The position numbers and the translations under genes are program-made. A stretch of 64,000 nucleotides of DNA. It comes from an uncultured delta proteobacterium. GTDB lineage: Bacteria > Desulfobacterota > Desulfobulbia > Desulfobulbales > Desulfocapsaceae. Positions 4,292-49,513 of this stretch are shown one piece after another (position 1 is the first letter of the stretch; every line of letters starts with the position of its first letter). The notes below the pieces were generated by a model that was not told the DNA's origin, ran no database searches, and worked only from the letters and a program-made list of their open reading frames with translations. The stretch covers positions 153,470-217,469 of the forward strand of contig CAWCTP010000012.1 in NCBI GenBank assembly GCA_963798425.1, written 5' to 3'.

Positions 4292-5723
4292 GTGTCACAT
4301 ATAATCAGACAACCAATAGCTGCTTCCTCGGTTCGTTTTGTTTTTATCCAATTTATGTGCCTCATCGGACTATTATCATTTTTTGTCGGGGCGGCTCGGT
4401 CTGGAGACATCACACTCACCCTTGAGAAGGCTGTAAAAGCTGCACAACTCAATGATCCCTGGTTGGTCGGCAACCGACATTCTCAAGACGCAATCGAATC
4501 AATGAGTGTTGCTGCGGGAACACTGCCTGATCCACAAGTCTCTTTGGGGTTCGCAAACGTGCCCACCGACACCTTTGATTTTGGTCAGGAGCCAATGACG
4601 CAGTTTAAGGTAGGGGTGACGCAGATGTTTCCGCGTGGAGACAGCCTTGCGATTAAGCGGAAGCAACTCGAAACGGTTGGAAGTGAGTTTCCTTTCCAAC
4701 GGCTTGATCGCAGAGCAAAAATTGTCGTTACGGTCAGTCAGCTCTGGCTTGATGCATATAATGCCCAGGAAAGCATAGTATTAATTGAAAAAGATCGTCC
4801 ATTATTTAAACAACTGGCGGATATTGCAGAGGCCAGTTATTCGTCAGCATTCGGGAAAACCAGACAACAGGACATTATTCGTGCTCAATTGGAACTGACT
4901 AGGCTTGACGATCGACTCACCATGCTCAAACAGAAACAAGAGATGTTTCTGGAGAAGCTTTCTGAGTGGCTGAGTGAATACTTTCGTGAGGAATATAGCG
5001 ACAGCCTGACGTCTGAGACACCACTCCCCTGGTCGCGTCTGGAATTGGATAGAAGTCGTCCCAATATAAAGATGTTACGGGAGTCTCTCTATTTGGCGAG
5101 CAATGAAGCGGATCCTCAGAAACTCTATGAATACTTTTCAAAACACCCATCGCTGCTTGCCCTTGATCGGGAGATTGAGGCCAGTAAGGTTGGAGTTGAC
5201 CTCGCCCGTGAAAGCTACAAAATTGGCTTGGGGTGTCAATGCTAATTATGGCTATCGTGGTGAAGACAATAATGGAAAAAATCGAGCTGATTTCGTCTCC
5301 TTAGGCGTCAGTTTCGATCTGCCATATTTCACGAAGAACAGACAAGATAAGCAAGTCCAGGCTTCTGTATCTCAGGCTGAAGCGATAAAGACGAAAAAAT
5401 GGGCCATGGTGCGTAAAATGATAGCCGGTTTCGAAAAAACCAGAACGCAACTCAAAAGACTGAATGAGCGACAGTTGCTCTACCAGGCTCATCTCTTGCC
5501 ACAAATGAGTGAACAGGCCGAGGCCTCTCTTACCGCGTATACCAATGATGAAGGTGATTTCGCTGAAGTCGTCCGTGCCAGAATCGCTGAACTGAATGCG
5601 CAAATTGATGCATTGGGCATTGACGTGGAGAAACAGAAAAATATAATCCAGTTGAACTATTATTTCATGGAAAAACCCGATGATATCATAGCAAATAATA
5701 GCCTTGTGGGAGAAAAAAAATGA
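4292..5723 (+). pseudogene. cusC: CusC/CzcC-like outer-membrane efflux factor (TolC family) split by a frameshift
   Basis: The N-terminal 317-aa ORF (4292..5245) and the C-terminal ORF (homologous part from about 5215 to 5723) are both OEP/TolC-like but lie in different frames. The frame switch maps near the A-run at about 5216-5222. The joined length of roughly 470 aa is typical for this family. The stop overlaps the cusB start (ATGA). Confidence 0.7.
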
Positions 5724-7303: not shown

Positions 7304-7315
7304 GGGATAGACAAA

Positions 7316-10300: not shown

Positions 10301-10498
10301 ACCGGCTCCGAGGTTATGAGGCGGATTGCCGCCCCGATGATCGGCGGGATGCTCAGCGCAACGATCTTGACCCTGGTGGTAATCCCGACCATCTATGCCA
10401 TTTGGAAAGGCTGGGGCCTGCCGAAGGAAAGTGAAGGAGCGGCTGGCCGGGCAGGACTCTCCATCGATGTAACCGAAGATCCCAACTCAACCCGATGA
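7316..10498 (+). CDS. cusA: heavy-metal efflux RND permease CusA/CzcA (HME family)
   Basis: 1060-aa, 12-TM RND protein with HME-family conserved blocks ([20 protein letters not shown], large periplasmic loops), directly after cusB. Confidence 0.9.
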
Positions 10499-33909: not shown

Positions 33910-34782
33910 ATGAGTAAACCGCGCTATTATCTACTGATGATGGTCTCTTTTCTCGCTCTCGTTTCCGGAGTGTGCGCACTTCTCTATGTTCCACTTCGCC
34001 AAGCATTTCTGGCCAATTGGGGATTTAATACGGTCATCCTTGGGGCATTGGTGATTGGAATTTTTCTTAACTTCCGCAGGGTGGTTGTTCTGAGGCCTGA
34101 AATAAGCTGGATCGAAATTTTTCGAACCGGCAGCTCGGGGTTGTCAGTGGCTGAAAGCCCGCATTTACTGAGGCCGCTGGCCAAGCATCTTGAGGGGTTG
34201 CATCGGGACCGTTTCAGCCTGTCTGCATTGTCACTTCAGACTGTTCTGGAGGGTATCCGAGGGCGGATGGATGAATCCCGGGAAATATCGAGGTATGTCA
34301 TCAGTCTGTTGGTTTTTCTTGGTCTGCTCGGTACTTTTTGGGGGCTGCTTGGGACCATCGGTGCGGTGAGCTCGGTGGTCGGTGGTCTCGAGGTCGGAAA
34401 CGGCGATTTCAACCAGATGTTTCAAACTATGAAAGTCGGTTTGCAGGAACCATTGAAGGGAATGGGAACGGCCTTCAGTTCTTCGCTCTTTGGTTTGGGA
34501 GGTTCACTTATCCTGGGATTTCTTGATATTCAGGCTAACCATGCTCAAAATCGTTTCTTTAACGAGCTTGAAGAGTGGCTTTCCGGTGTGACCCAGTTGG
34601 TCGAGAGAACGACGAAGGTTCAGCTTGAAGGGCAGGGCTCTATAGCACCCACGGGACCAGGCCAAGCACAGTTAGAAGCTTTGATTAGGGAGTTGCAGCG
34701 CACGAACAATTATCTGCAGGAAAAGTCCAGGGAAGAAATTGCAAAGTCAGCCGGTGATCCCGACGGGGATGATTGCCGCTAG
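33910..34782 (+). CDS. MotA/TolQ/ExbB-family proton-channel protein
   Basis: GGGAGGAACAACTC RBS. 290 aa with TM helices and the conserved C-terminal block LLGTFWGLLGTIGAV…MGTAFSSSLFGLGGSLILGF. Confidence 0.75.
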   Translation: MSKPRYYLLMMVSFLALVSGVCALLYVPLRQAFLANWGFNTVILGALVIGIFLNFRRVVVLRPEISWIEIFRTGSSGLSVAESPHLLRPLAKHLEGLHRDRFSLSALSLQTVLEGIRGRMDESREISRYVISLLVFLGLLGTFWGLLGTIGAVSSVVGGLEVGNGDFNQMFQTMKVGLQEPLKGMGTAFSSSLFGLGGSLILGFLDIQANHAQNRFFNELEEWLSGVTQLVERTTKVQLEGQGSIAPTGPGQAQLEALIRELQRTNNYLQEKSREEIAKSAGDPDGDDCR

Positions 34783-34790
34783 GAGAAAGT

Positions 34791-36068
34791 ATGTCCTCCA
34801 AATTTCGATCTTCTCAACAGTCACCAAGTATATGGCCGGGCTATGTTGATGCCTTGTCGGCTCTACTGATGGTGGTAATCTTTGTCCTGATGATATTTGC
34901 CTTTTCTCAATTCATTTTGAGTTATATCCTCTCCGGTCAAACCAGCGAATTGGCATCCCTTCATTCCCGTATCGCAGAAATAACCAAGTTACTGGGACTT
35001 GAAAAGAAGAGAAACAAGGAGATGGGGCAGCAGATAGCTTCTCTTTCAATCCAGGTTGAAGCACTGACCCTTGACCGAACGAAATTGCGCAGTAACGTCG
35101 ATGATCTGACCGCACAAAACGTCGCGGGAAAAAAAGAACAAGAACAGCAGTTACGAACCATTGCCAGCCTGCAGCAGGACATCGATGCCTTACAGGCTGT
35201 CCGTCGGGAGCTCGAAAAAAAGATCGCCAATGTGACGGCAGGTTTGGAGCAGGAACAACATCTGACTCTGTCACTGAGAGACCGAAGCAAAGCACTGGAG
35301 GCTCGCCTGGCTGACGAAGAGGAGAAGACACTGCTTGCTCAAAAGGATATTGACCAGCGCGATATCAGGATTCAGGCACTATCCGCATTGATCGGAGAGC
35401 AGCAGGAAAGTCTCGACAAAGAACAGCGCCTCACTGCCGACGCTAGAGCCGAGGTGGCATTGCTCAAGGAACAGTTGGTGCAGTTGCGGAGTCAACTGAG
35501 CGAAATTAACAAAGCTCTGAGTCTTTCTGAAGCGAAACGGACTGAACAAAAGGAAGAAATTCGTAATCTTGGTAATCGACTCAATATCGAGTTGGCGAGG
35601 AAAGTAAACGAACTGGAACGCTACCGTTCTGAATTTTTCGGTCGGTTGCGAAAGATTATCGGTGATAATCCGTTGATCCGTATAGAAGGCGATCGGTTTC
35701 TCCTGCAGGCTGAATTGCTTTTTGCCTCCGGGACAGCGGATTTGGGGGAGCAAGGGAAAAAACAGCTGCAACAGGTGGCGGCAGTACTGCTCAAGTTGAT
35801 ACCTTCCATCCCGAAGGACCTGCCATGGATTCTGCGGGTAGACGGCCATACTGACCGAGTGCCAATCCACTCGGCAAAGTTTGCTTCAAATTGGGAATTG
35901 TCCACCGCCAGAGCCGTCTCCGTTGTCCGGTATCTCGCTGAGCAGGGGATACCAGAGGCGCGGATGGCAGCTGCAGGATTCGGCAAATTCCATCCACTCG
36001 ACCCGGCTGATACCGAAGAGGCATATCGCAAAAACAGGCGCATTGAAATCAAGCTTACTTCCCGCTAA
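34791..36068 (+). CDS. MotB-like protein with ~250-aa coiled-coil linker and C-terminal OmpA-type peptidoglycan-binding domain
   Basis: The start overlaps the motA-like stop. MotB-like TM (WPGYVDALSALLMVVIFVLM). A long heptad-rich region. An OmpA-like C-terminus (GHTDRVPIHSAKFASNWELSTARAVSVVRYL). Confidence 0.75.
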   Translation: MSSKFRSSQQSPSIWPGYVDALSALLMVVIFVLMIFAFSQFILSYILSGQTSELASLHSRIAEITKLLGLEKKRNKEMGQQIASLSIQVEALTLDRTKLRSNVDDLTAQNVAGKKEQEQQLRTIASLQQDIDALQAVRRELEKKIANVTAGLEQEQHLTLSLRDRSKALEARLADEEEKTLLAQKDIDQRDIRIQALSALIGEQQESLDKEQRLTADARAEVALLKEQLVQLRSQLSEINKALSLSEAKRTEQKEEIRNLGNRLNIELARKVNELERYRSEFFGRLRKIIGDNPLIRIEGDRFLLQAELLFASGTADLGEQGKKQLQQVAAVLLKLIPSIPKDLPWILRVDGHTDRVPIHSAKFASNWELSTARAVSVVRYLAEQGIPEARMAAAGFGKFHPLDPADTEEAYRKNRRIEIKLTSR

Positions 36069-36258
36069 TTTTTGATTGTTGTTGAATTCCGTGGGAGTTT
36101 GATGCCTTTATCAGTTTCTCCATTTTTAAATCAAACAATTTTTTCCGGAAAATCAAGCCGTAAATGCGGAAAAGGCATTATCCAAAACTTCATTTTTCAG
36201 GTACGCATTTACTATTTTCTTAATATAAAACAAAACGATGAACAACTTGTATCGATAT

Positions 36259-36274
36259 TGGCTTGAAAATTGCT
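36259..36274 (+). promoter_or_regulatory. sigma54 (-24/-12) promoter candidate
   Basis: tTGGCttgaaaatTGCt: GG-N10-GC with TGGC and TTGC elements, about 210 bp upstream of the enhancer-binding protein (EBP) start. Confidence 0.5.
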
Positions 36275-36485
36275 TGTTTCAAACAGCACAAACCAACCGA
36301 GTTTTTGCAGTTCTTCAGTACAAATTGATCTACCCATTACCCATCAAGCTTATCTACTACAGCAAGAAAACTTGCATGGGTATAGTTCAGCTAAAGATTG
36401 TTATGCTGTCGTTCATAACACTTCTTTCTTAATTCTTAGGGCCGAAAAATGTCATAATAAAATCCCCATCGAGAGAGGACGCCTA

Positions 36486-37967
36486 ATGAGTCGTTTATCA
36501 CCACGCGTTTCCGAGAAAGTTGAAGCATCGATCATATTCCCTGATAAAAAAGAACGATCCGTTCCTTTGACGAATATCGGTTTAGGTGGCGTTTTTCTGG
36601 ATGTTAGCAAAGAAATTTCGGCTAAATGGTTCGCACCTCAAACAATTCACACTCTCCGCATCAGTACAAAGAAATTTGGCGAGTTGATGCTTGGTACAAT
36701 GGTTGTTAGAAATGGAGGGAAGGGTGTCGGTCTTGTTTTTTCTGCAATCAGTCATGGAGATCTTTTAAAAATATGGGACTTCATTCGCGAGCTTATAGCC
36801 GATAAAACACGATGCCCCTATTGCAATCACGCCTTCAAGGTATTTCCTGAAAACTGTCCCGGTTGTCAACGTAATCTGAATTTCGAAAACAAGGGATATC
36901 TCACCTACTGGAAAAAGAAAGCACTCCTCAATCAGGTAACCGACAGCTTGAGCAACCTTACTGTCAGTGAGTTACAAAGAGTCTCGCAATTCATTGAAAA
37001 GGACTCCCGGGCTATGAAGCAATTGCCTGTGTCTAGTGAAACTGAGGAATTTGTGGGTACGTGTCCAGCAATTATGAAAGTTTTTTCTTTAATCCGAAAG
37101 ATATCTCTCACCGATCTCCCCGTCGTCATCTTTGGAGAAAGTGGGACGGGTAAGGAATTGACCGTCCGCGCCATACATGAAAGAAGTCCAAGAAACAAAG
37201 GGCCTTTTGTTGCTATAAATTGTGCGGCAATACCTGAGTCACTTCTTGAATCTGAACTTTTTGGACATACTAAAGGAGCTTTTACAGGGGCTCACGAGAT
37301 CAAGAAAGGAAAATTTGAATTGGCCGATAAGGGAACGCTGTTTCTTGATGAAATTGGAGAAATTCCGCTTAATTTGCAGCCAAAACTCCTTCGAGTCCTG
37401 GAGACCCAGGTAATTGAGCCTATCGGTTCGCAGGAAACCAGAAAGGTGAACGTTCGAATTCTCGTCGCAACAAATGTTGATCTTGAGGAGGCCGTAGCTG
37501 CGGGTCGTTTCAGGCTGGATCTGTATTACCGGCTTAAGGTTTTCACCATTAACCTTCCTCCCCTGAGGGAACGAGGAGAAGACAAAGGCATCCTGGCACA
37601 ATATTTCCTAAAGAAGATCAAGCAGGAAAGTAACTGGGCATGTAAAGGTTTCACCCCGGAGACTATGGACGTGATCAGTAAGCACTCCTGGCCAGGTAAC
37701 GTAAGAGAGATGATCAACCGTATTAGACGAGCGGTAGTGGTTCAGGACGAATGGATCAGGCCGGAAGATATGGAACTCGATGTCGAACCCAACACAAAAA
37801 ATCAACCAAGACTCAAAGAAGCCAAGGAAAACCTCAAAGAAAAAATGATACAGAACGCCTTAGTAGAGAATGGGTACAACATTTCTCAAACCGCCAAATC
37901 TCTGGGGATCAGCCGTCAGCATCTCTATCTGCTCAAAAAGAAATTTTCTATCGAAGTCTCCCGGTAA
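36486..37967 (+). CDS. sigma54-dependent transcriptional activator with N-terminal PilZ domain, Zn-ribbon and C-terminal Fis-type HTH
   Basis: GAGAGAGGA RBS. PilZ motifs RLSPR and NIGLGG. CPYCN…CPGC ribbon. AAA+ core with GESGTGKEL and GAFTGA. C-terminal HTH (ISQTAKSLGISRQHLY). Confidence 0.85.
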   Translation: MSRLSPRVSEKVEASIIFPDKKERSVPLTNIGLGGVFLDVSKEISAKWFAPQTIHTLRISTKKFGELMLGTMVVRNGGKGVGLVFSAISHGDLLKIWDFIRELIADKTRCPYCNHAFKVFPENCPGCQRNLNFENKGYLTYWKKKALLNQVTDSLSNLTVSELQRVSQFIEKDSRAMKQLPVSSETEEFVGTCPAIMKVFSLIRKISLTDLPVVIFGESGTGKELTVRAIHERSPRNKGPFVAINCAAIPESLLESELFGHTKGAFTGAHEIKKGKFELADKGTLFLDEIGEIPLNLQPKLLRVLETQVIEPIGSQETRKVNVRILVATNVDLEEAVAAGRFRLDLYYRLKVFTINLPPLRERGEDKGILAQYFLKKIKQESNWACKGFTPETMDVISKHSWPGNVREMINRIRRAVVVQDEWIRPEDMELDVEPNTKNQPRLKEAKENLKEKMIQNALVENGYNISQTAKSLGISRQHLYLLKKKFSIEVSR

Positions 37968-38230
37968 GGAACATACACGACACCTGTCATATAGGTGTTA
38001 CATTTCTGTTTGTTTTACTGTTTTCAATAGTTTAAACGACTATTTGGTCCCAGTTTGTAATATTTACCTTACAATTGAGGACGTATTTTTTTGTGTTGTT
38101 TTGCAATAACGACCAGTTAGGTTTGTGGCATGGTTTTTGTATATTTAGACACAAACGTACGGATATGAAACTTACGCTGAGCCAAGAGAACGTTCGAACG
38201 AAAACTATTCAAACAATAAGGAGGGTTCTT

Positions 38231-38620
38231 GTGAAAAAATATGTTTTGAATATTCTCATTATTGCCCTCCTTTTCATTTCAAACATAGCACTCGGTCAAG
38301 AAAGCAATCCGACGGTCCCTCAATTTCTTGAAACCAGCCAATTTTGCCAAGACTGTTTAACTGATGCCACGGTTGAGAAGTCCCATAAAACGATTGCTAC
38401 CAAGGAGCTTTCCTCTGAAGAACTTGACCGGATTATTGGAGAGGGACCAGCAAGTTTTATATTTCAAAATGACAACCAATCAAAAAAAAGGAGCCTGGCT
38501 GAGGTTATTCTCTGGGATGAAATCTCAAAACGAAGGAATGCCTCCATCGCGAGCAGTATCGCATTGAAGAGTGGAGGATCTTTAATGCATGGTGTCCAGG
38601 TAAACGGGGTTATCAAGTGA
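38231..38620 (+). CDS. small secreted hypothetical protein
   Basis: AAGGAGG followed by a GTG start. Signal peptide (KKYVLNILIIALLFISNIALG). The start codon is uncertain. Confidence 0.4.
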   Translation: MKKYVLNILIIALLFISNIALGQESNPTVPQFLETSQFCQDCLTDATVEKSHKTIATKELSSEELDRIIGEGPASFIFQNDNQSKKRSLAEVILWDEISKRRNASIASSIALKSGGSLMHGVQVNGVIK

Positions 38621-38747
38621 ACTATTCCATAGGAAGGATAAAGCCATAAGTGAAACAGCACAAAACAAAGAGCAAAGGGCGCCTTGAAGATCAAAAAACA
38701 AGGTTAGCAAAACGGAAAAAATTGACAAGAAAGGAGGTGGAAGAAAG

Positions 38748-39302
38748 ATGAGAAAATATTTGATCTTATTTCTAGCGTTCGCTTTCATGCAATCACCCCT
38801 TGCCTGGGGAAAGTCATCGAGTCTGACGGATGATGAGATGGAAGGGATATACGCCACAGGTGTGGATATAAGTGGAGGCACCCTGGTAGGCGTTCAAGAC
38901 ACAGTCATTGGTAGCGACGGTGCCATTGCGGTGGCCAATGCAACCGATAGCGCAATTGCCAATGACAAATCGTCTTCGGTGGCCAATACAAATGATAGCG
39001 CTGTACAGGTTGGTGTCAATAATAGGGAAAACGGCCAAAATCAAATGGATAATGCTGGATCCACAGTACAAGGAGGAGATTCGACGGTGGTCAATGTGGA
39101 CGGAGATAACAGAGATCAAAACAACCTGAATAAAACCGTTCAAGTCAATGATGAAGGTCAATCGAATAATCAAGGAATTATTGCCAACTTGTCACAAGGG
39201 ATTTTCGTACAGCCGGTTAATAGTGTGTCGCTGGCGAATGCGTCAATGAACAGTGACATCTCTCAACACAATACGGTTACAATCATGACAGTCAACTATT
39301 AA
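38748..39302 (+). CDS. secreted Asn/Asp-rich low-complexity protein, paralog family member 1
   Basis: AAAGGAGG RBS. Signal peptide, then the shared motif SLTDDEMEGIYATGV. Imperfect repeats (VANATDSAIAND / VANTNDSAVQVG). No Cys. Confidence 0.6.
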   Translation: MRKYLILFLAFAFMQSPLAWGKSSSLTDDEMEGIYATGVDISGGTLVGVQDTVIGSDGAIAVANATDSAIANDKSSSVANTNDSAVQVGVNNRENGQNQMDNAGSTVQGGDSTVVNVDGDNRDQNNLNKTVQVNDEGQSNNQGIIANLSQGIFVQPVNSVSLANASMNSDISQHNTVTIMTVNY

Positions 39303-39321
39303 ACTTTAGAAGGAGGACATT

Positions 39322-41058
39322 ATGAAAGGATTTAAGGTATACATGAGCTCACTCGCTTTGGTAGGGTTTCTGGTGTCTCCAGCATGGTCGACCCAGACCG
39401 CGCTCTCAGATTCGGACATGGATGGGGTTTATGCCCAGGGAATCACCATTTCGAACACCTACAACGATAACGATACTTTCAACAACACAACTACCCAGAA
39501 AAGTTCAAACTCCCTGAAGAGCAATCAAGCCAACCTGGCAAGCAATAATGCCCAAGCCGCGGCTTTAGGTAGCGGCGGGGATGCAAAGGGTGAAGCGGAG
39601 ACTGAAGGTAATAACAATGCCAACGGCGGCGATGGCGGTACCGGTGGTGCCGGTGGGCCTGGTTTTGGTCTTGGTCTTGGTCTTGGTGACAGTGGCGGCA
39701 ACACCGGCACCGGTAGCGGCACCGGCGGCAACGCTGGTGGCGGCGGTGGTGGCGGCACCGGTGGTCTCGCCGGTAATTTAGTCCCCGGTGGAAATGCTTT
39801 CGGCGGACCGGGCCTGGCTGGATCTGGAGCAGGGGTCCTGAATCCTAATGCTAACATTGATCCTGATATTCCAATTAGCGCCAATGTAGCGGCCACCCTG
39901 CAAACGTCTTTGGGTCTTAATGTCCAGGTTATTGCAGATATTAATGCAGCAGACAATGGTTCAGTTGCTATCGATGATATTGACGACTCAGCCGTCGCCA
40001 ATCTTAGTTCTATAGCCAATCGTAACAATAAAGGAAATTACCAAGCAGCAATTAATGGAGACAATGTCTTCAACAACTTGCAAAATCAGATCAGTCTGGA
40101 CGACAGCACCGTCTTTGGCAATGAATCACCGTCAATTAATACAGTTATTGGAAATGTGGCTGCGCCGAAAGCAGTGGCATTTGGTTCTGCGTACTCTGGG
40201 CCAGCCTTTGCCGGTGCGTCTAACAAAAGTGATCAGTTTAATGTTCCGGTTGCGGTCAGTGCAGCAACGAACGTTGGGCTGACGGATGCATATGGCAGGA
40301 CTTATGCCGATGCTGATGGTGGCGATGCACTGCAAGTTCCAATTGCTGCATCAGCCAACTTGGGTAAAGCCGATGCTGATGCTGACGGCGGTGCCTCTTT
40401 TGCAGCTGACGGAGCACTTGGCTTAACAGGTGCCGGCAGTGCTGCCTTTAATCCTAGCGGTAATGCTGCTGGACTCGCCGGCGCTACAGGCGGAGTCGGC
40501 GGCAATGGCGGGGACGGCAATGATGGTAATGCTCTGGCCGCCGCACTCGCTAGGGGTGGCAGTGACAACGATGCTCTAAGCGCTGCACTTGCTGCTCAGG
40601 GATTTGATCAGAAGGCTAAAGCCGGCGATGCCAATGGTGGTACAGCTGATGCTTATAACGACCAGAGCAATAAAAATTCTGCCGCTGCAATTGCGGATAC
40701 CAGTGGAAAAGCGCTGGCAGCTTCGGATGTAAAAGCAATCAACGAGCAGTACGCCAAGTCCGATGAAGCTAAGGCAGAAGGGGAAAATTATGCCAAGCAG
40801 GAAAATGATGTCAATGCAAAAAGCACCGCTACAAACCTGACCGCCGCTGATGCAAGTGGCACAGTAGCTGTCGTGACTGTTGATCAGAACAATCTGGTAA
40901 AATCCCTCCAGGTAAGTGGGAGCAATGATAACAAAGGCAACGTATTCCTGTCAATTCAAAGTAGTGTGCAACAGCAGGTGAACAACGTTTCAACTTCTGG
41001 CTATTCATCACCTATAACCCAAGGCAATGCAGTGGCCGTGAATACTCTGTTCAATTAG
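39322..41058 (+). CDS. secreted Gly/Ala/Asn/Asp-rich low-complexity protein, paralog family member 2
   Basis: GAAGGAGG RBS. Signal peptide plus ALSDSDMDGVYAQGI. A long GGTGGAGGPGFGLGLGLGDSGG… tract. No Cys. 578 aa. A Pro-rich antisense ORF is disregarded. Confidence 0.65.
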   Translation: MKGFKVYMSSLALVGFLVSPAWSTQTALSDSDMDGVYAQGITISNTYNDNDTFNNTTTQKSSNSLKSNQANLASNNAQAAALGSGGDAKGEAETEGNNNANGGDGGTGGAGGPGFGLGLGLGDSGGNTGTGSGTGGNAGGGGGGGTGGLAGNLVPGGNAFGGPGLAGSGAGVLNPNANIDPDIPISANVAATLQTSLGLNVQVIADINAADNGSVAIDDIDDSAVANLSSIANRNNKGNYQAAINGDNVFNNLQNQISLDDSTVFGNESPSINTVIGNVAAPKAVAFGSAYSGPAFAGASNKSDQFNVPVAVSAATNVGLTDAYGRTYADADGGDALQVPIAASANLGKADADADGGASFAADGALGLTGAGSAAFNPSGNAAGLAGATGGVGGNGGDGNDGNALAAALARGGSDNDALSAALAAQGFDQKAKAGDANGGTADAYNDQSNKNSAAAIADTSGKALAASDVKAINEQYAKSDEAKAEGENYAKQENDVNAKSTATNLTAADASGTVAVVTVDQNNLVKSLQVSGSNDNKGNVFLSIQSSVQQQVNNVSTSGYSSPITQGNAVAVNTLFN

Positions 41059-41174
41059 TATTTTATTTGACCAAGAGTTAAATGAAAAGGAGAGGGGGCA
41101 CAGAATCAGACCGTGCCCCCTTCTCCTGTTTCTCGTTTCAATTCAGGTTGAATGAAATAAAGGAGATAGAAGAA

Positions 41175-41831
41175 ATGCTCGCTCAAAAGCCAATAAAAGT
41201 ACTTTTAATAATGGTACTCATAGTAGGGTTATTCCCTGTTATCGGGTGGGCAGGGCCAAGTCTACTGACTGATGATGATATGGATGGAATATACGCCAAG
41301 GGGATCTGGGTAAATTTTGAAATAAACATAGCGCTACCCGGAGGAAACACACTGTCAGTTCCCTTTTCCAATATGTCTAATATGGCCTCGCTAGGTAATA
41401 TAGGGGGGACGGGAGGTGGTGTTGAAAATGTAAGTGTATCTACCCCGTCGTCAACTTCTAATCCAGCCACCGGTCAAAGCACTCCGTCGGTGGTTTCTGC
41501 TCCAGCCACTGGTCAAAGCACTCCGTCTGTGCTTTCTGCTCCAGCTACTAGCCAAAGCACGCCGTCGGCTACTTCCGGAAATACCACAAGTTCTCCTGCT
41601 AATACGGCATCACCTGTTTATGAATATAGCTCTCCGGGATCAGGCTTTATTGTCACTGGCAATGCTATGCAGGGAAACAGTGGACTGATGATAAATGCAC
41701 CCAATTCTGCAGTCAGCATGACCATCAGTGTGGTGGTCCTGAATAACAGTACGGTTGGAGGGAATATTATTCAATCCTCGAATAGCTACCCTACTAACCT
41801 GTTCTTGTCACTTAAAAGCTATATGCAGTAA
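41175..41831 (+). CDS. secreted Ser/Thr/Pro-repeat protein, paralog family member 3
   Basis: AAGGAGA RBS before MLAQKPIKVLL. Signal peptide plus SLLTDDDMDGIYAKGI. Three near-identical ATGQSTPSV(V/L)SAP repeats. Confidence 0.6.
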   Translation: MLAQKPIKVLLIMVLIVGLFPVIGWAGPSLLTDDDMDGIYAKGIWVNFEINIALPGGNTLSVPFSNMSNMASLGNIGGTGGGVENVSVSTPSSTSNPATGQSTPSVVSAPATGQSTPSVLSAPATSQSTPSATSGNTTSSPANTASPVYEYSSPGSGFIVTGNAMQGNSGLMINAPNSAVSMTISVVVLNNSTVGGNIIQSSNSYPTNLFLSLKSYMQ

Positions 41832-42082
41832 GTAAAGCCATAATCCCAATTTGGGATAGATTCCTTTGGATCTTCTTGATCTTTTTGAATAAAGGTACTC
41901 ACTCTATCTCACTCTATTTGGGTTGTGGCTCGTTGAACTATGAATAATTTTGTGTCCGACTCGTTGAGGTCCCTGTTTTTTTATTTTATGAGGGAGGATT
42001 TTCCAACAAGCTGCCAAAAGGTTTCTTTGATTGTTTTTCCTGTGATAAAGAAACTGATTAAAAGAGGGAGGAAAGGGTTGAT

Positions 42083-42793
42083 ATGAAAAAAAGACTTATG
42101 ATGTTTCTGTCCGTTTTGTTGATGCTTCTGCTCTCTGGATGTGCAAAAACAGTCGGACCCAGAATAAGCATAGGCGGAGCAGGATTGGGACTGGTAGTCG
42201 CAATGCCGGTAAAGAGCGACCAGGAGATAAAATGGCAAAATGTCAAAAGGCAAAGTCTGGATATTAGTTGTGGACCGGCAGCCTTGTCCACTTTGATCAA
42301 CTACTATCTTGAAGATCAAGTATCGGAAATGGACATCATAAGCGGTATCCTGACGTCCAGCGACATCACCAAGATAAAAAAAATTCAAAAGAGACAGGCT
42401 TTCTCTTTGTTAGATTTGAAGAAATTTGCAAAATCCAGGGGGTATCAGGCTGCAGGATACAGAGTGGGTATTCAAGAACTGCTGGACTTTGCCAAGCCGG
42501 TTATAGTTCCTATCGAAACCATGGGGTATCGGCACTTTGTTGTGTTCAAGGGGATTAAGGGTGACCGGGTATACCTGGCTGACCCTGCTTTTGGTAACAG
42601 AACGATGCGCTATCCAAATTTTCTGTATGTCTGGAAGCAGCGGGTGGCTCTGGTAGTCAGTGCTCATGATGGAAAAGAAATTAAGAAGCATGATTTGAGT
42701 TTAGATGGTCAGCATGGGGTCTATGTGGAGGGTGGCATGCAGAGGATATTGAACCAGAGCTCTATAAATTTTATACCCTTGGGAGACTTCTAA
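42083..42793 (+). CDS. peptidase C39-like domain lipoprotein
   Basis: Lipobox LLSGC. C39 hallmarks: Cys in SLDISCGPAALSTLINYY, His in YRHFVVFKGIKGDRVYLADPAFG, then WKQRVALVV. Confidence 0.7.
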   Translation: MKKRLMMFLSVLLMLLLSGCAKTVGPRISIGGAGLGLVVAMPVKSDQEIKWQNVKRQSLDISCGPAALSTLINYYLEDQVSEMDIISGILTSSDITKIKKIQKRQAFSLLDLKKFAKSRGYQAAGYRVGIQELLDFAKPVIVPIETMGYRHFVVFKGIKGDRVYLADPAFGNRTMRYPNFLYVWKQRVALVVSAHDGKEIKKHDLSLDGQHGVYVEGGMQRILNQSSINFIPLGDF

Positions 42794-42891
42794 CAGAGTT
42801 CTCAGACAGAGTTATCAGTATGCTTGATTCGAAAAAATTAAGAAAAGGGTGTCTAGCCCTTTTCTTAATTTTTTCTTGTTGATTCAATCTG

Positions 42892-43929
42892 CTAGAATAA
42901 GTCAAAACGGAAAGGTACTGCCAGCTGGACGGTTACGTCGGGCGCATCCTCTGATAGTCCAATGGCGATGGAGAAATCGAGGTACCCACCTTTATCAAGA
43001 GCTAACACAGTCCCGAACTTGAGTGACGGAATGTTTTGATGGCTTCCGGAAATGGTTCCGGTTTTAATTCCGGCATTGTTATCGGGAAACTGGATATCCT
43101 CAACTGAACTTCTGAAGATAACTTGATGAGAATACTGCATATTTAAAGAAAAATCCGGACTCAATGCATAGGCAAATCCCAGCCCCCAATCTATGCTGTC
43201 GCCCGGATCATACTCTACATCTCCTACATTAACATCCGGTCCCAAATCTATCGTTCTTGAAATATTGTATGTATAGCCGATATTAGAAAAAACGACCACA
43301 GGGTCCATGGTTTTTATGGCGCTGAGAGTTCCATGGATTCCCCAGAAACCAGACCCCGTGGGGATCTCGTCATCATTCAGATCGAAGGGGTCCTTGCCTG
43401 TTCTGGTCTTTACCCTTACTGAGCCTACCAAGGCCGGTCTGCTGGCTTTTTCATTTAAAAATTGATAACTGAGGCCAGCCTCTATATCTCCAAAAGCTGT
43501 ATCAGTTGTTTTTGTTTCTTCACCGCTTTGGTACGAGATAATGTCGTTGGAATACCGCCATGGCACCATTACGTCCATTTGCAATTGGTTCCAAAGGCCA
43601 TATCGAAAAGTAAGGCTGGGTTCTACTATATTTCTTTCGACATCGGCCACATCAAAGGAACCTATAATAACCCCCGGAAGAACAGCCAAGCCATAAACGT
43701 ACAGGCGGTTGGTTGTTTGTAGTGAATAGCGGAGTTGAGGAGAGATCTCAAGCTGCCCCTGTTGGAGCAGGACGCCCCCTCTTTCGGCAACAGCTGGTGC
43801 AATTGAAAGTCTGATATCTTCAGGATTTTCAGCACCTTGTTGGGCGGACAAGGCTGTTTGGCCATTTCCAATGGTGCACAGGCCAAGAGTCATTACCATA
43901 ATAACACTCTTACAAATCGGCTTTTTCAT
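42892..43929 (-). CDS. outer-membrane beta-barrel protein
   Basis: AAGGGAGGA RBS before MKKPICK. Signal peptide. Alternating beta-strand pattern. Ends …VPFRFDLF (aromatic C-terminus). Convergent with the C39 gene. Confidence 0.6.
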   Translation of the reverse strand: MKKPICKSVIMVMTLGLCTIGNGQTALSAQQGAENPEDIRLSIAPAVAERGGVLLQQGQLEISPQLRYSLQTTNRLYVYGLAVLPGVIIGSFDVADVERNIVEPSLTFRYGLWNQLQMDVMVPWRYSNDIISYQSGEETKTTDTAFGDIEAGLSYQFLNEKASRPALVGSVRVKTRTGKDPFDLNDDEIPTGSGFWGIHGTLSAIKTMDPVVVFSNIGYTYNISRTIDLGPDVNVGDVEYDPGDSIDWGLGFAYALSPDFSLNMQYSHQVIFRSSVEDIQFPDNNAGIKTGTISGSHQNIPSLKFGTVLALDKGGYLDFSIAIGLSEDAPDVTVQLAVPFRFDLF

Positions 43930-44198
43930 CGTTCCTCCCTTGCTGCTCATATGAGCGATAACTATTAACAAATAGGTGTAAGGTGATGGGTGATATGTAG
44001 TCGTTTCTGTGCTTGTCTTGAGGTTTACCAGATATTTCTTTTCTCTTCCTGAGTTTTATTAAACCTATCGTATTTCTATATCTTTTTCTATGATTTTCGT
44101 AACTGTTCAGAAAAATAATATCGAAAAATCAATTCTGTCTGAGCAGAATCCAACTGCCTTTCAAATATACAATCAATCTATGCTCGATTACAGACATC

Positions 44199-44224
44199 AC
44201 ACGAAGGGATACCACGAAGGGATA
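44199..44224 (+). repeat. perfect tandem 13-bp direct repeat (cacgaagggatac x2)
   Basis: About 125 bp upstream of the helicase start. Candidate regulator binding site. Confidence 0.5.
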
Positions 44225-44347
44225 CGGCAGTGATAAAAGATATAGAAAATCAATAAAAACATCGATATTGGGCACTAAGTCAGGTAAACCTGAAATTGGG
44301 ACATAGCATAACTATTCAATAACACAATTCCATGATATTGGCATTAT

Positions 44348-47300
44348 ATGACCAGTGAAAGTCAGGATTTCCTTCGACAGTGCCTTCTTCTTGATATCGA
44401 GGTTAACGAAAAGAACGTTATTTATTCGATAGGTGGTGCTTTTCAGGGAGATTCTTTTCTGATCAAACCTGGGAAACAGATATCTTTTCAGCAGCTTCAG
44501 GAATTAGATAAATTCGGTCGTTCAGCGCAGTTTATTCTAGGTCATAATATCCTCAGTTATGATATTCCGCGCCTCAAGCAGATTGATCCTTCTCTGCAAC
44601 TCTTGAAAAAGCCGGCAATTGATACTCTGATTCTCTCTCCGCTTGCTTTCCCGGAAAATCCTTATCACCGATTGGTGAAAGATTATAAGCTCGTCCGGGA
44701 CAGCGTTAACGACCCGGTGCAGGATGCTCTTTTAGCCGGTAAAGTCTTTTCCGAGCAGTGGGATGCTTTTACCGGACAGATCGGCGCTGGCTCGGACGCA
44801 CCGATACTTTTCAGAAGTTTTCTGCACAATGATGGAAATCTGGGCGGAACCGCTGCAGCATTTGAGGCAATGAGTGTGCCTCTATTGAGAGGAGACGATC
44901 TTTACGAATCCTTTTGTTGGTTGGCACAAAAACATGGCTGCAGGACCAGTGCTGAAAATATTGTCGAGCAACTTATTAATGGAACGGTGAGTCATCCTCC
45001 GCTTGCCTATGTTACTGCCTGGTTGACAGTTGCTGGTGGAAATTCGGTTTTGCCGCCCTGGGTAAAACATCACTTTCCTGAAGTGCCTTTTTTACTCAAT
45101 CAACTTCGGCAGAATGGCTGCGGGGAGAGTAATTGCAGCTATTGCAGGGAGCACCATGATCCTCACCATTATCTGCAAAATTATTATGGTTTCCAGGATT
45201 TTCGGTTAGAGCCGGCTACAGAAGAAGGAAAAAGTTTACAGGCGGAAATTGTAGCAGCTGCCGCAAAAAATCTGTCACTTTTTGCCACGCTTCCGACTGG
45301 CGGCGGCAAATCGCTCTGCTATCTGCTTCCAGCCCTGATGCGCTACCAGCAACGCAATATGTTGACTATCGTCATTTCGCCCCTCCAGGCCTTGATGAAA
45401 GATCAGGTCGATAATTTCCTGAAACAGACGGGAACAAAGCTTGCGGTAGCTTTATACGGCATGCTGACCATGCCGGAGCGCGGAGAGATTATAGAGGGAG
45501 TTCGTCTTGGCGATGTCGGGATTCTGTTTGTCTCCCCCGAACAGCTTAGAAATCAATCGTTTATCAATACTATCAGTCAACGGGAAATTGGGGCCTGGGT
45601 TTTTGATGAGGCGCATTGTCTCTCTAAATGGGGCCATGACTTTCGGCCCGATTATCTCTACTCCATCCGGTTCATTCGTGAGTTTGCTCAAAAAGAAAAA
45701 ACCGGTATACCGCCTGTCCAGTGCTTTACCGCAACCGCTAAAAAAGATGTAAAAGCCGAAATAATTGACATCGTCCAGAGCGAACTCGGTTTGCGGCTGC
45801 ATCAATTTGAAGGCGGACACGAACGGACCAATCTGCATTATGAAGTGTGGCCTGTAGAAAAGCATGAAAAGAACCAGACAATTCTCGAATTACTCAGGGC
45901 GAGGTATCAGGGCAAAGGTAGCGTGGTTATTTATTGCGCGACGAGAAAAAATACCGAAATGTTATCGGAATTTCTCAATATGGCGGGATATACCGCTGAA
46001 GCCTTTCATGCAGGTCTAGACCCATCGTTGAAAAAACGTATCCAGGAAAATTTCATCGAGGGGGCAACCCCAGTTATTTGCGCCACCAACGCTTTTGGCA
46101 TGGGGATCGATAAGGACGACGTCCGTCTGGTAATTCATGCAGATATTCCCGGATCGCTGGAAAATTATCTCCAGGAGGCCGGTCGAGCAGGACGTGATCG
46201 CAGTGCCGCTGAGTGTATCCTCATATTTGCCGAGCAGGATATTGAAGGGCAATTTAGACTCAGCAGCAAATCCAGATTGACGCAGCGGGAAATTGCTCAG
46301 TTTCTTCGAGGGTTGCGATATGCTGCAAAAGGTGGAGATTCTGTGGTGCTGACAGCAGGGGAATTGCTGCGCCTCGACGTTGTGGACATCGATCCGGAGG
46401 AGCATCCAAATGCAGATACCCAGGTTCGCACCGCAGTCTCCTGGCTAGAACGTGCCGGTTTTCTTGAACGTAATGAAAATCACACCAGGGTCTTTCAGGG
46501 TAAGCCATTGGTCCGAAGCCTGGCGGAAGCGACCGAAAAAATGGGCAAACTTAATCTCTCTCAGAGGCAACAGGCCAGATGGCTGGCAATTTTAGCAGTT
46601 TTGATGGAGCGGCGACAGAATCAGTCCTTTAGTGCAGATGAACTGGCGGGGCAGTCAGCATTTACAACCACCCCTGAAGATCCGCCAAATGAAACAGAAA
46701 CCCTGCGTGTTATTCGTACTTTAAACGATATGGCCGAACAGGGCTTACTCTCAAAGGAAACGATCCTTTCAGCCTATGTCCGTTATAAAGTCTTGAAAAA
46801 TACAGAAAAACAACTGCAGCAGATAGTTATGCTGGAGCACGATTTCCTCCAGGTTTTACAGGAGACCGCACCGGAAATGGAGGTTGAGGCATTACTGGAG
46901 ATCGATCTTCGGCAAGTGAACCAGCTGTTACTGGAGAAGGGCCATAAAGAAAGCACCCCGCATATCCTGAAACTAATTCTGCATGGTTTATCCCGTGATG
47001 GCAAAGGGCTTGCGGGACAGCGTGGGAGTCTTTCGCTTAAAGCCAAAGGAAATAATAGATTTTCCCTGTGCCTGCATCGTGATTGGCAATCGCTGGTGCA
47101 AACGGTGCGTACTCGTCAATTGGCTGCTTCTGCCGCATTGAAGGTAATGCTTGGCACGATTGAGCCTTCTGCCAAGCCAAATGCAAGTCTGTTAGTCGAG
47201 TTCACCCTGGAAAAAATAATTGCCGGGTTAAAAACAGATTTACTTCTATTGCCAAAACTCCGGGACCCGCTTGCTGCGGCGGAACGTGCGCTGACTTTTA

Positions 47301-49513
47301 TGCATGAGCTGGGAATTATCGAATTACAGCAGGGACTGGCTGTTTTTCGTCAGGCCATGACCATCAAGATAAACCCGGAAGCAAAGCGAAGACGCTATTC
47401 CGGGACTGATTTCTCTCCTCTTAAAACCCACTATAACGAACGGAATTTCCAGATTCATGTGATGAACGAGTACGCGAGGCGGGCGCTGGAGAAGCTGAGT
47501 GTGGCAATGAATCTGGTCTCTTCGTATTTCAACGATGATAAAGACGACTTTATAAAACGGTTTTTTCCGGGGAAGAAGAAACATTTGGAAAGGGCGACCA
47601 GTGAGCAGTCGTATCTCAGGATAGTCGATGATTTGAAAAATGAAAGTCAACAAAGGATCGTTGCTGCGGAAACCGACCGCAATATGCTGGTTCTGGCCGG
47701 TCCTGGTTCGGGGAAGACAAGGGTTGTTGCTCATCGCGTGGCGTATCTGCTCCGGGTGAAACGGATAAAACCCGAGGCGATTCTGGTGCTCTGCTTTAAC
47801 CGCAGTGCGGTGATGAGTCTTCGGAGAAGAATTCGGGACCTGGTGGGGGACGACATGTTTGGGGTGACAACACTCACCTTTCATGGTTTGGCCTTGCGGC
47901 TGACCGGCAGGTCTTTGGTCACTGGAGAACAGAAAACTGGTCTCGATGAAATCGATTTTTCCATGGTTATCCAGGATGCTATCAGGTTGTTAAAAGGTGA
48001 GGAGGATGTCTTGGGTTTTGGTGATGTCCCTCCCAGATATACCCTGGTCGGCAAAATCAGCCATATCCTGGTCGATGAATATCAGGATATTGATGCCGAA
48101 CAGTATGAACTTGTCGCACTCCTGGCAGGTAAGACGCTGGAAGAAAAGGATCAGAAAATGACAATCCTTGCGGTAGGAGACGACGACCAGAACATCTACC
48201 GCTTCAGGGGGGCCAATGTCGGATTTATCCGAAAGTTCCATGAGGATTATAAGGCGGAAATTCACTACCTCATAGAAAACTACCGATCGACTGCACATAT
48301 AGTCTCTGCTGCAAACACTCTTATCAGCATGAATTCCGACCGGATGAAAATCGGTCATTCACTTCAGGTGAACCAGGCAAGGATTTCGTTGCCGCCTGGA
48401 GGAAACTGGCATTTGAATGATCCCCTAACAAAAGGTAGAGTACAGCGAATTGAAGTTGAGAACCAGCAGGATCAGGCCTGCGTGCTCTTACAAGAATTGC
48501 GACGTTTGCAGCGATTGCAGAATGGTTTTGCATTTGGCGAGTGTGCTGTTCTTGCCCGTGAGTGGAAAGGTCTTGATCTGGTTCGGGCTGTTTTGGAACA
48601 TGAAAAAATCCCGGTCAGTCTGAACTGGGGGCGTACGAATGCTTTTCCACGCATGTCGAAGATTAGGGAAAATTGCGTGCTTCTCGATCAATTACGGGAG
48701 ACAAGGTCGGAAATGAGAACAGCAAGTTCTCTCCTCACCTTTGTGCCGGTTGATATAAATCAAGATACTCTTTGGCACACTAATCTCAGGAGGTTGATAG
48801 CAGAATGGAGAGAGGAAACAAAGGATGTTCCACAGCCGGTGTCCCTTATTGAGGACTATTTTTACGAAGCACTCTCCGACCAGAGTCGGTCTAAAAATCT
48901 CTCTAACGGGATTTTTCTCTCCACTGTTCATTCTATAAAAGGTCTTGAATTCGACCATGTTTTTCTTCTCGGAGATGGTTGGCAGAAAAAACAGGGGATG
49001 GAAATGGAAGAGGAACGAAGGTTGTATTACGTCGGCATGTCGCGGGCGCGTGAGACGTTGCATCTCTTCAATCTTTCAGATAGTCCTAATCCACACGCAG
49101 AATCACTCACCGGCGACTTTCTGATCGCTCGAAAAGTGAAACCCGTAGAAAAATTCCAACCTTTAAATACACACTATGCCCTATTAGGTATGGGGGATCT
49201 TTTTCTCGATTACGCCGGACGAAAAAATGCGAGTCATCAGATTCGGGGAGCTTTGCAAAAATTACGGGCCGGAGACCGACTGCTGATAGAAGTGCGCAAT
49301 CGACAGTTAGAGCTGGTCAATGAACAAGGAATTTCAGTTGCTCGATTATCGAAAACTGCGCAGGCAGAGTGGGAAAATCGGGTGAGAGCGATCAGGGAAA
49401 TTCGGGTTATAGCAATGGTTCAGCGTTGTAAAAAGGATATCATTGATCAAACTTTCGGCAATCGATGTTCAGAAGAAAATTGGGAGGTTCCTATTGTCGA
49501 ATTTTGTTTTTAG
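44348..49513 (+). CDS. DEDDh-exonuclease / RecQ-like SF2 helicase / UvrD-like SF1 helicase triple-fusion protein
   Basis: 1721 aa. N-terminal DnaQ-like exonuclease (LLLDIEVNE…ILGHNILSYDIPRL). RecQ motifs (TGGGKSLCYLLPA, SPLQALMKDQV, DEAHCLSKWGHDFRPDY, ATNAFGMGIDKDDVR, QEAGRAGRD). C-terminal UvrD motifs (AGPGSGKTRV, ILVDEYQDID, VGDDDQNIYRFRGA, NYRST, VHSIKGLEFDHVFLL, VGMSRARE). Confidence 0.85.
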   Translation: MTSESQDFLRQCLLLDIEVNEKNVIYSIGGAFQGDSFLIKPGKQISFQQLQELDKFGRSAQFILGHNILSYDIPRLKQIDPSLQLLKKPAIDTLILSPLAFPENPYHRLVKDYKLVRDSVNDPVQDALLAGKVFSEQWDAFTGQIGAGSDAPILFRSFLHNDGNLGGTAAAFEAMSVPLLRGDDLYESFCWLAQKHGCRTSAENIVEQLINGTVSHPPLAYVTAWLTVAGGNSVLPPWVKHHFPEVPFLLNQLRQNGCGESNCSYCREHHDPHHYLQNYYGFQDFRLEPATEEGKSLQAEIVAAAAKNLSLFATLPTGGGKSLCYLLPALMRYQQRNMLTIVISPLQALMKDQVDNFLKQTGTKLAVALYGMLTMPERGEIIEGVRLGDVGILFVSPEQLRNQSFINTISQREIGAWVFDEAHCLSKWGHDFRPDYLYSIRFIREFAQKEKTGIPPVQCFTATAKKDVKAEIIDIVQSELGLRLHQFEGGHERTNLHYEVWPVEKHEKNQTILELLRARYQGKGSVVIYCATRKNTEMLSEFLNMAGYTAEAFHAGLDPSLKKRIQENFIEGATPVICATNAFGMGIDKDDVRLVIHADIPGSLENYLQEAGRAGRDRSAAECILIFAEQDIEGQFRLSSKSRLTQREIAQFLRGLRYAAKGGDSVVLTAGELLRLDVVDIDPEEHPNADTQVRTAVSWLERAGFLERNENHTRVFQGKPLVRSLAEATEKMGKLNLSQRQQARWLAILAVLMERRQNQSFSADELAGQSAFTTTPEDPPNETETLRVIRTLNDMAEQGLLSKETILSAYVRYKVLKNTEKQLQQIVMLEHDFLQVLQETAPEMEVEALLEIDLRQVNQLLLEKGHKESTPHILKLILHGLSRDGKGLAGQRGSLSLKAKGNNRFSLCLHRDWQSLVQTVRTRQLAASAALKVMLGTIEPSAKPNASLLVEFTLEKIIAGLKTDLLLLPKLRDPLAAAERALTFMHELGIIELQQGLAVFRQAMTIKINPEAKRRRYSGTDFSPLKTHYNERNFQIHVMNEYARRALEKLSVAMNLVSSYFNDDKDDFIKRFFPGKKKHLERATSEQSYLRIVDDLKNESQQRIVAAETDRNMLVLAGPGSGKTRVVAHRVAYLLRVKRIKPEAILVLCFNRSAVMSLRRRIRDLVGDDMFGVTTLTFHGLALRLTGRSLVTGEQKTGLDEIDFSMVIQDAIRLLKGEEDVLGFGDVPPRYTLVGKISHILVDEYQDIDAEQYELVALLAGKTLEEKDQKMTILAVGDDDQNIYRFRGANVGFIRKFHEDYKAEIHYLIENYRSTAHIVSAANTLISMNSDRMKIGHSLQVNQARISLPPGGNWHLNDPLTKGRVQRIEVENQQDQACVLLQELRRLQRLQNGFAFGECAVLAREWKGLDLVRAVLEHEKIPVSLNWGRTNAFPRMSKIRENCVLLDQLRETRSEMRTASSLLTFVPVDINQDTLWHTNLRRLIAEWREETKDVPQPVSLIEDYFYEALSDQSRSKNLSNGIFLSTVHSIKGLEFDHVFLLGDGWQKKQGMEMEEERRLYYVGMSRARETLHLFNLSDSPNPHAESLTGDFLIARKVKPVEKFQPLNTHYALLGMGDLFLDYAGRKNASHQIRGALQKLRAGDRLLIEVRNRQLELVNEQGISVARLSKTAQAEWENRVRAIREIRVIAMVQRCKKDIIDQTFGNRCSEENWEVPIVEFCF

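Follow-up and report, generated by a model that had tools for sequence, protein, structure and literature searches.

The 64-kb window considered here (64,000 nucleotides; GenBank assembly GCA_963798425.1, contig CAWCTP010000012.1, positions 153,470 to 217,469 of the forward strand) belongs to an uncultured delta proteobacterium of the Desulfocapsaceae and contains a gene coding for a sigma54 enhancer-binding protein (EBP; 36486..37967, + strand), hereafter referred to as the activator, followed by a cluster of genes coding for secreted proteins and for an export machinery resembling that of Fap fibres (38231 onward). The original prediction held that the activator combines an N-terminal PilZ domain, and thus a possible input for cyclic di-GMP (c-di-GMP), with the usual modules of a sigma54 EBP, that it is expressed from a sigma54 promoter of its own, and that it heads the secreted-protein cluster. 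The domain identities of the activator are established by sequence, structure prediction and comparison, as is the conservation of the gene cassette, of the promoter that precedes the cluster and of two dyads located in the same spacer.

The mechanical open reading frame (ORF) call for the activator (36270-37967) is longer than the real gene. Because every one of the 40 aligned homologues opens with M-x-R-[LF]-S-P-R, the start is placed at the ATG at 36486, which is directly preceded by GAGAGAGGA. The resulting 493-aa product comprises, in order and all on the + strand, a PilZ domain (residues 1-104; 36486..36797), a Cys4 zinc ribbon (C110-P-Y-C113 ... C124-P-G-C127; 36813..36866), two long helices (residues 138-156 and 160-178; 36897..37019) that link the sensor module to the AAA+ core in AlphaFold2 (AF2) models and lead into a hinge predicted to be disordered (residues 177-187), the sigma54-interaction AAA+ domain (37053..37550; Pfam PF00158, Sigma54_activat, 2.6e-69) with its lid (AAA_lid_14), and a Fis-type helix-turn-helix (HTH) domain (37842..37928; HTH_8, PF02954, 1.9e-6). 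The GAFTGA loop (37275-37292, residues 264-269) is intact, and its F-T-G-A is kept in 41 of 41 sequences of the family. Walker A (GESGTGKE) and Walker B (DE) are invariant, as are the four cysteines C110, C113, C124 and C127 (41/41), and the family profile matches the zinc ribbon of ribosomal protein L32 among PDB sequences (E=0.008). The zinc ribbon, the GAFTGA-bearing core and the Fis-type HTH that had been announced are therefore all present, as judged by cysteine conservation and Pfam. The best NCBIfam match, a PEP-CTERM-box response regulator (363 bits vs a cut-off of 502.6), was rejected; it covers only the core and the HTH, and the activator has no REC domain.

The N-terminus of the activator is a genuine PilZ fold in the predicted structure, and the protein is a sigma54 EBP with a PilZ N-terminus as had been proposed. 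When the N-terminal 110 aa are submitted in isolation, Pfam PilZ (PF07238) is matched at E=1.1e-4 (22.9 bits vs a cut-off of 22.5; profile positions 3-100 of 102). In longer constructs the score drops to 20.8-20.9 bits, below the cut-off, and the domain goes unreported in a full-length scan; a precomputed PF07238 match exists for about half of the homologues. The AF2 model of residues 1-185, built on a 35-sequence alignment, reaches a mean predicted local distance difference test score of 89.2 and consists of six strands preceded by an N-terminal loop and closed by a C-terminal helix (90-103), after which come the zinc ribbon and the two long helices. Searched with Foldseek against the PDB, this model has PilZ domains as its best 41 matches, most of them solved with c-di-GMP bound, including Alg44, BcsA, PA0012, MapZ, MotI, YcgR, MrkH (5ejl, 5kgo) and PA4608, with target-normalised TM scores of 0.7-0.83 and root-mean-square deviations of 2.1-2.8 Å. 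Among PDB sequences, the family profile itself finds MotI (E=0.028) and PA0012, and the MotI alignment places RxxxR and N-I-S-A-G-G onto R3..R7 and N30..G35 of the activator.

The PilZ signature has been defined as RxxxR plus [D/N]hSxxG, and in MapZ c-di-GMP is contacted by Arg9, Arg13, Asp35 and Ser37 (bioRxiv 10.1101/814665). Both of the motifs noted in the original prediction, RLSPR (residues 3-7) and NIGLGG (residues 30-35), are present in the activator. The first of them, R3-L-S-P-R7, satisfies RxxxR, R3 being found in 40 and R7 in all of the 41 homologues. In the second, N30-I-G32-L-G-G35, position 30 is D or N in 36/41, position 31 is hydrophobic in 41/41 and G35 is kept in 41/41. R7 and G35 are the sole invariant residues of the barrel besides the start Met, and W97, in the C-terminal helix of the domain, is likewise invariant. 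Since the motif arginines and glycine are conserved to this degree while the sensor module diverges to ~25% identity within the family, a retained ligand site can be argued for.

The family is rare. A word-indexed homologue search with the N-terminal profile yielded 4 proteins, and its size became apparent only from an exhaustive search of 1.84 billion representatives, which gave 72 clusters (50% identity) at E<=1e-10 and in which generic PilZ proteins also appeared, at 1e-8 to 1e-6. A profile scan of genome contigs with the full-length alignment returned 80 loci, all of them generic EBPs matched only from residue ~130, and none of these was used. Our literature search turned up no paper describing a family of sigma54 activators with a PilZ domain and a Cys4 ribbon.

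Downstream of the activator, the cluster begins with a small gene (38231..38620, +) whose 129-aa product carries a signal peptide and, in mid-protein, the motif LSSEELDRIIGEG, and has no family match in Pfam or NCBIfam. Among the loci of activator relatives compared here (44-77% protein identity; designated by L numbers below), an equivalent gene comes first in L001-L004, L086 and L087, and the motif appears in orthologues as LSAEELDNITAGG, MSQEELEAMTGKG and VSAADLATMHGKG. Three larger secreted proteins follow on the same strand: a 184-aa subunit (38748..39302) with orthologues in L002 and L004, a 578-aa Gly/Ala/Asn-rich subunit (39322..41058) that is probably the major one, and a 218-aa subunit (41176..41831), whose ATG at 41176 is set by the MLAQKP or MLTQKT beginnings of its orthologues, the ORF list having placed the start at 41082. 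The next gene (42083..42793, +) codes for a stand-alone C39 peptidase of FapD/FilB type (Pfam Peptidase_C39, 3.8e-17), which matches NCBIfam C39_FapD at 1.1e-33 (116 bits vs a cut-off of 330) and FilB slightly better (5.4e-38, also below the equivalog cut-off). Convergent with the operon lies a gene for an outer-membrane beta-barrel (42892..43971, - strand; probable start ATG 43929; Pfam Phenol_MetA_deg), whose NCBIfam FapF match (4.1e-45, 154 bits) is far below the equivalog cut-off of 700, which points to a homologue and not to an equivalog of FapF.

Homology of the secreted subunits to FapB and FapC was considered and rejected on the basis of Pfam, NCBIfam and hhalign, the last giving a probability of 1.5% for the window proteins against the FapB/C-type subunits of L086 and L087. 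Nor do the accessory proteins FapA and FapE have a match among the window proteins in NCBIfam, a library that does detect FapE in the Aeromonas locus L093. Given FapD and FapF matches and no FapB/C similarity, the export machinery is Fap-like and its cargo is not recognisably FapB/C; we infer that this cargo forms fibres, possibly amyloid, in the clade to which the window belongs.

Several further features of the cluster may be mentioned here. The motif L[ST]D[DS][ED]M[ED]G[IV]YA.G stands directly after the signal peptides of the three larger secreted proteins (38748-39302, 39322-41058 and 41176-41831). The motif observations, including that on the small first protein, extend to L004, L086 and L087. 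C39 peptidases cleave double-glycine leaders of the form LSxxELxxIxGG, and the leader-like motif may be the processing site of the stand-alone, periplasmic FapD-like C39 peptidase. Right after the gene of the 578-aa subunit, a GC-rich hairpin (41093-41121; AGGGGGCAC...GTGCCCCCT, 11-bp stem) followed by a T-rich tract (region 41088-41135) resembles an internal terminator or attenuator, by which the proportions of the subunits would be set. A perfect hairpin with a 20-bp stem (42831-42875) separates the C39 peptidase gene from the convergent FapF-like gene and has the look of a terminator that works in both directions.

That the activator heads a conserved secreted-protein cassette, as originally suggested, is borne out by synteny. 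In L001, L002/L003, L004 and L088, the genes after the activator code for a small secreted protein, for two to three larger ones, for a stand-alone C39 peptidase and, convergently, for an outer-membrane barrel; in L086 and L087, the barrel gene adjoins the activator instead, in divergent orientation. The cassette thus lies beside the activator in six other independent metagenomic or genomic loci and in two gene orders. Because it is constant while the genes upstream of the activator are different in every locus, activator and cluster travel together. Subunits of the FapB/FapC repeat type are present in the more distant loci L086 and L087; the neighbours of the activator in L086 match FapB, FapC, FapD (6e-53) and FapF (5e-61) and bear the classic GIVGVNQSAGNLNNQAN repeats.

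Between the activator and the first cluster gene lies a 263-bp spacer of only 40% mean identity across loci, in which three islands are conserved. One of them (38126..38141, +; TGGCATGGTTTTTGTA) reads TGGCATG-N4-TTGTA, that is, a sigma54 promoter with correct spacing and with GT, not GC, in the -12 element. The original prediction had pointed out a near-consensus element at this place, upstream of the first secreted gene, and comparison turns it into a conserved promoter with the reservation just made about its -12 GT. It is the sole match to TGGYAYG-N4-TTGTA in the 64-kb window, where 0.05 would be expected, and the probability of a site of this quality within the spacer is P≈0.003. The promoter is conserved as TGG(C/T)A(C/T)G-N4-TTGT in L001, L002, L004 and L089 and as TGGCATA-N4-TTGT in L087, where such promoters precede both divergent genes; its -12 element is TTGA in L086 and L091, and the canonical TTGC occurs in Geotalea L088 only. 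No sigma70-like promoter was found within 35900-38400, where 4.3 would be expected. The identification of the element at 38126 as a conserved sigma54 promoter is strongly supported by these comparisons, and it would presumably be used by sigma54 in vivo.

The two other islands contain dyads. From the -12 position at 38140, transcription is predicted to start near 38152, which puts the centre of a proximal dyad (TGTAA-N8-TTACA; 38056..38073) at about -88 and that of a distal dyad (TGTCA-N8-TTACA; 37985..38002) at about -159, and such positions are typical of the upstream activating sequences (UAS) of EBPs. The two dyads are the only exact matches to TGTMA-N8-TKACA in the 64 kb, both in the spacer, vs 0.20 expected. 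The proximal dyad is exact in L001, L002, L004, L086 and L089, and in L087 it departs at a single position; its distance to the TGG of the promoter is 70-74 nt, or 83 nt in L089, about one helical turn more. The distal dyad is partly conserved in L001 and L004 and overlaps a weak hairpin. Both are candidate UAS to which the activator would bind. An earlier proposal to look for such sites before 38231, 38748 and 39322 was thus rewarded at the first position, with two exact dyads, and at neither of the others; indeed, no further sigma54 promoter or UAS precedes the window genes that begin at 38748 and 39322, nor those of the C39 peptidase and of the outer-membrane protein, and the dyad at 39241, which has one mismatch, is not paired with a promoter. 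An invariant AATAAC (38104-38112; also at the aligned positions of L001-L004), which lies ~15 nt before the -24 element and after the proximal dyad, could be a site for a bending protein similar to integration host factor or some other contact site.

Alternatively, the activator might be a general regulator that adjoins the cluster by chance, with the dyads belonging, for example, to the terminator of the activator gene or to the binding site of another factor. The hairpin overlapped by the distal dyad is indeed followed by Ts, and one relative of the activator, in the Desulforhopalus metagenome-assembled genome L085, has no such cluster adjoining it. This explanation is nevertheless very improbable in our judgment: the cassette accompanies the activator into different genomic contexts in the six other loci, whichever the gene order, the half-sites of the dyads are conserved while the hairpin is not, and the proximal dyad stays in phase with the promoter.

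A different question is how the activator gene itself is expressed. A sigma54-like -24/-12 element (36259..36274, +; TGGCTTGAAAATTGCT) stands 212 nt before its ATG, at the distance of ~210 bp given in the original prediction; its spacing is TGGC-N7-TTGC, and not N8 as then stated, which is the canonical GG-N10-GC spacing. Its status is uncertain. If it were a working promoter, the activator gene would be sigma54-dependent and would have a leader of ~200 nt, and it would be driven either by the activator itself, looping from the dyads 1.7 kb downstream in a positive feedback, or by another EBP. The element agrees with the consensus at 10/12 positions, such a site has P≈0.006 on the correct strand of the 417-bp intergenic region, and the lack of a sigma70-like promoter mentioned above extends to this region; moreover, L091 has a similar site (TGGCACGTTTCCTGCC, 10/12) 256 nt upstream of its ATG, and L002 a weak one. 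Against this, sites of equal quality number seven in the window vs 3.5 expected, and seven of the nine other loci have no comparable element, namely L089/L090, which have the nearest relatives for which upstream sequence exists (77% identical protein), L001, L004, L085 and L086-L088. No UAS-type dyad is found upstream of the element, none with <=1 mismatch occurring between 28063 and 37985, and an autoregulatory UAS upstream of the activator gene was rejected for that reason. The putative leader (205 nt) folds no better than shuffled sequence (z = -0.55), and 35500-44500 has no Rfam match at E<=1, and a riboswitch or structured leader was rejected on these grounds. The claim of an own sigma54 promoter finds no support in this comparison: the 36259 element is unlikely to be among the conserved parts of the system, and sigma54-dependent expression of the activator gene from it seems unlikely.

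Taken together, the gene at 36486-37967 probably codes for a sigma54 activator dedicated to the Fap-like fibre secretion operon next to it and gated by its N-terminal module, with c-di-GMP as the likeliest ligand. In such a mechanism, the Fis-type HTH would bind the two TGTMA-N8-TKACA dyads, whose centres lie ~88 and ~159 bp ahead of the predicted start, upon which the AAA+ ring would assemble and its GAFTGA loop would remodel sigma54-RNA polymerase on the promoter at 38126-38141. The transcript would span the small first gene and the secreted subunits, and the FapD-like C39 peptidase and FapF-like outer-membrane channel would complete the export system. The N-terminal module (PilZ domain, Cys4 zinc ribbon and two-helix linker) would gate this activity, c-di-GMP being held by R3xxxR7 and N30-h-G-x-x-G35, and high c-di-GMP would switch on the production of fibres, i.e., of biofilm matrix.

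A number of observations weigh against this interpretation. The AF2 model of the full-length activator has confident domains whose relative placement is not confident (predicted TM score 0.49), and as the sensor does not confidently touch the AAA+ core in it, the gating mechanism draws no support from it. The FapD and FapF matches of the window fall under the equivalog cut-offs, and FapB and FapC are not matched by the 184-, 578- and ~218-aa secreted proteins in Pfam or NCBIfam. The promoters of the cassettes keep the GG of the -24 element and the G at -13, with T (or A) and not the hallmark C in the -12 element, and the L085 relative has no neighbouring cluster. As for the ligand, the Pfam PilZ score is only at the threshold, and the [D/N]hSxxG motif is not fully preserved, the ligand-contacting Ser being replaced by Gly at G32; across the 41 homologues, this position is G in 34, S in six and C in one. 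Finally, the sole PilZ-EBP that we found discussed in the literature, MXAN_2902, is without binding motifs (PMC8844925).

These last points would fit a degenerate PilZ domain that does not bind c-di-GMP and serves as a protein-protein or dimerisation module, a role known for non-binding PilZ domains. The real signal would then come from a partner protein or be a redox or metal signal received by the Cys4 zinc ribbon, with the architecture and the target of the activator otherwise unchanged. Beyond the Ser-to-Gly substitution in most of the family and the borderline profile score, the four ribbon cysteines are as invariant as the PilZ motif residues, and MXAN_2902 and other PilZ proteins lack binding (PMC8844925; PMC8316039). 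Yet the retention of R3, R7 and G35 in 40-41 of 41 sequences, in spite of the divergence of the barrel, is hard to explain without a ligand-binding role. The Ser is retained in six members of the family, PA2989 illustrates that binding is still possible with a single motif substitution in a PilZ domain (bioRxiv 10.1101/814665), and c-di-GMP control of Fap through an EBP is established in Pseudomonas (PMC13101488). We therefore regard a degenerate, non-binding PilZ domain as doubtful. Input of c-di-GMP through the PilZ domain is the likely course, if not by much: it is favoured by the conserved arginines and by the Pseudomonas precedent and weakened by the loss of the Ser.

The rest of the window calls for a few remarks. 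The REC-GGDEF cyclase gene mentioned in the original prediction (1105-2406) is real and codes for a REC-REC-GGDEF protein whose GGEEF is intact and is preceded, at five residues, by an RxxD I-site, probably an active, product-inhibited diguanylate cyclase; it lies 34 kb from the activator, and its presence is no evidence of a specific link. Directly upstream of the activator, genes at 33910-36068 code for a MotA/ExbB-like protein and for one of 431 aa that contains a long coiled coil and ends in an OmpA/MotB domain, neither of which is conserved beside the activator elsewhere. A 1721-aa protein (44348-49513), encoded immediately past the FapF-like gene, combines DEAD/Helicase_C and UvrD-type helicase domains. 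Other stretches (5720-10498, 24509-26782 and 13389-14936) hold heavy-metal export genes, for a CusB-like protein that includes a CusF domain, for a resistance-nodulation-division pump of AcrB/CusA type and for a P-type ATPase bearing an HMA domain, as well as a DDE transposase gene.

The significance of the locus is best appreciated against the systems already described. It offers a defined regulatory unit, made of two dyads and a promoter with an unusual conserved -12 GT, for the matrix-fibre system of anaerobic relatives of sulfate reducers, in which biofilm regulation has been little studied, and it draws attention to a Fap-like export machine with unrelated cargo. The fusion of PilZ to a sigma54 EBP is already catalogued: the activator shares its overall architecture with MXAN_2902 of Myxococcus xanthus (PMC8316039; PMC8844925). 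The family described here differs from MXAN_2902 in retaining RxxxR and [D/N]hGxxG, in having a Cys4 zinc ribbon besides and in the defined target next to it.

The direct action of c-di-GMP on an NtrC-family regulator of biofilm matrix genes likewise has precedents in FleQ, VpsR and Nla24 (PMC12564702; PMC6158489; PMC8844925), which the activator would resemble in this. In FleQ, c-di-GMP is bound on the AAA+ domain and matrix genes are regulated without sigma54, and VpsR is without the sigma54-contacting residues, whereas here a separate receptor fold of canonical type, PilZ, is fused to an intact GAFTGA activator. If this PilZ domain binds c-di-GMP, it would provide a clean, modular input of the second messenger into sigma54 transcription by way of a classical receptor fold, where FleQ and VpsR rely on idiosyncratic sites of AAA+ or REC-like type. 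A PilZ protein that couples c-di-GMP to the transcription of a surface-fibre operon, that of the type 3 fimbriae, is also found in MrkH of Klebsiella pneumoniae; MrkH, however, has a PilZN-PilZ architecture, binds DNA itself and works with sigma70, without AAA+ or sigma54 machinery.

A close parallel is the BrfA-RpoN control of the fap genes in Pseudomonas fluorescens, where fapA-E is transcribed from a -24/-12 promoter that depends on RpoN and needs an EBP encoded next to it, BrfA (PMC9207406), which is reported to sense c-di-GMP directly, according to a statement in PMC13101488 that cites Guo et al. (2024, Microbiol Res 287:127864). As in the BrfA-RpoN/fapA-F system, the activator of the window adjoins a Fap-type cluster (FapD-like C39 peptidase, FapF-like channel and secreted subunits) with a -24/-12 promoter before its first gene, c-di-GMP being the reported input in Pseudomonas. 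It differs in that the activator gene precedes the operon, the -12 element is GT and the cargo is not FapB/C-like. In Aeromonas caviae L093 (NZ_AP026896.1), a divergent 433-aa sigma54 EBP (2706-4004, minus strand) adjoins fapBCDEF, with an IS4 transposase inserted between the EBP gene and fapB. We infer from adjacency and size that this EBP is BrfA-like. Its N-terminus is a VpsR-type domain (PF20161) and not PilZ plus zinc ribbon, which suggests that the sensor of BrfA-type fap regulators differs from PilZ.

Should the PilZ domain of the activator bind c-di-GMP, it would show, together with the VpsR-type Aeromonas regulator, that homologous fibre-export systems in distant phyla have recruited non-homologous c-di-GMP sensors onto one activator chassis. 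It is possible, though we would put it short of probable, that in the small Desulfobacterota family, for the first time among sigma54 activators, a bona fide PilZ domain delivers c-di-GMP directly to an intact GAFTGA AAA+ domain, an independent solution to the task of BrfA/VpsR-type regulators with the receptor swapped and the wiring kept, and that its FapD/FapF-type machinery exports a new, non-FapB/C family of fibres with a motif that the C39 peptidase may cut. In any event, the regulatory logic is known from Pseudomonas, and what the Desulfocapsaceae locus displays is not a new kind of system, it is the same logic built with a different sensor domain.

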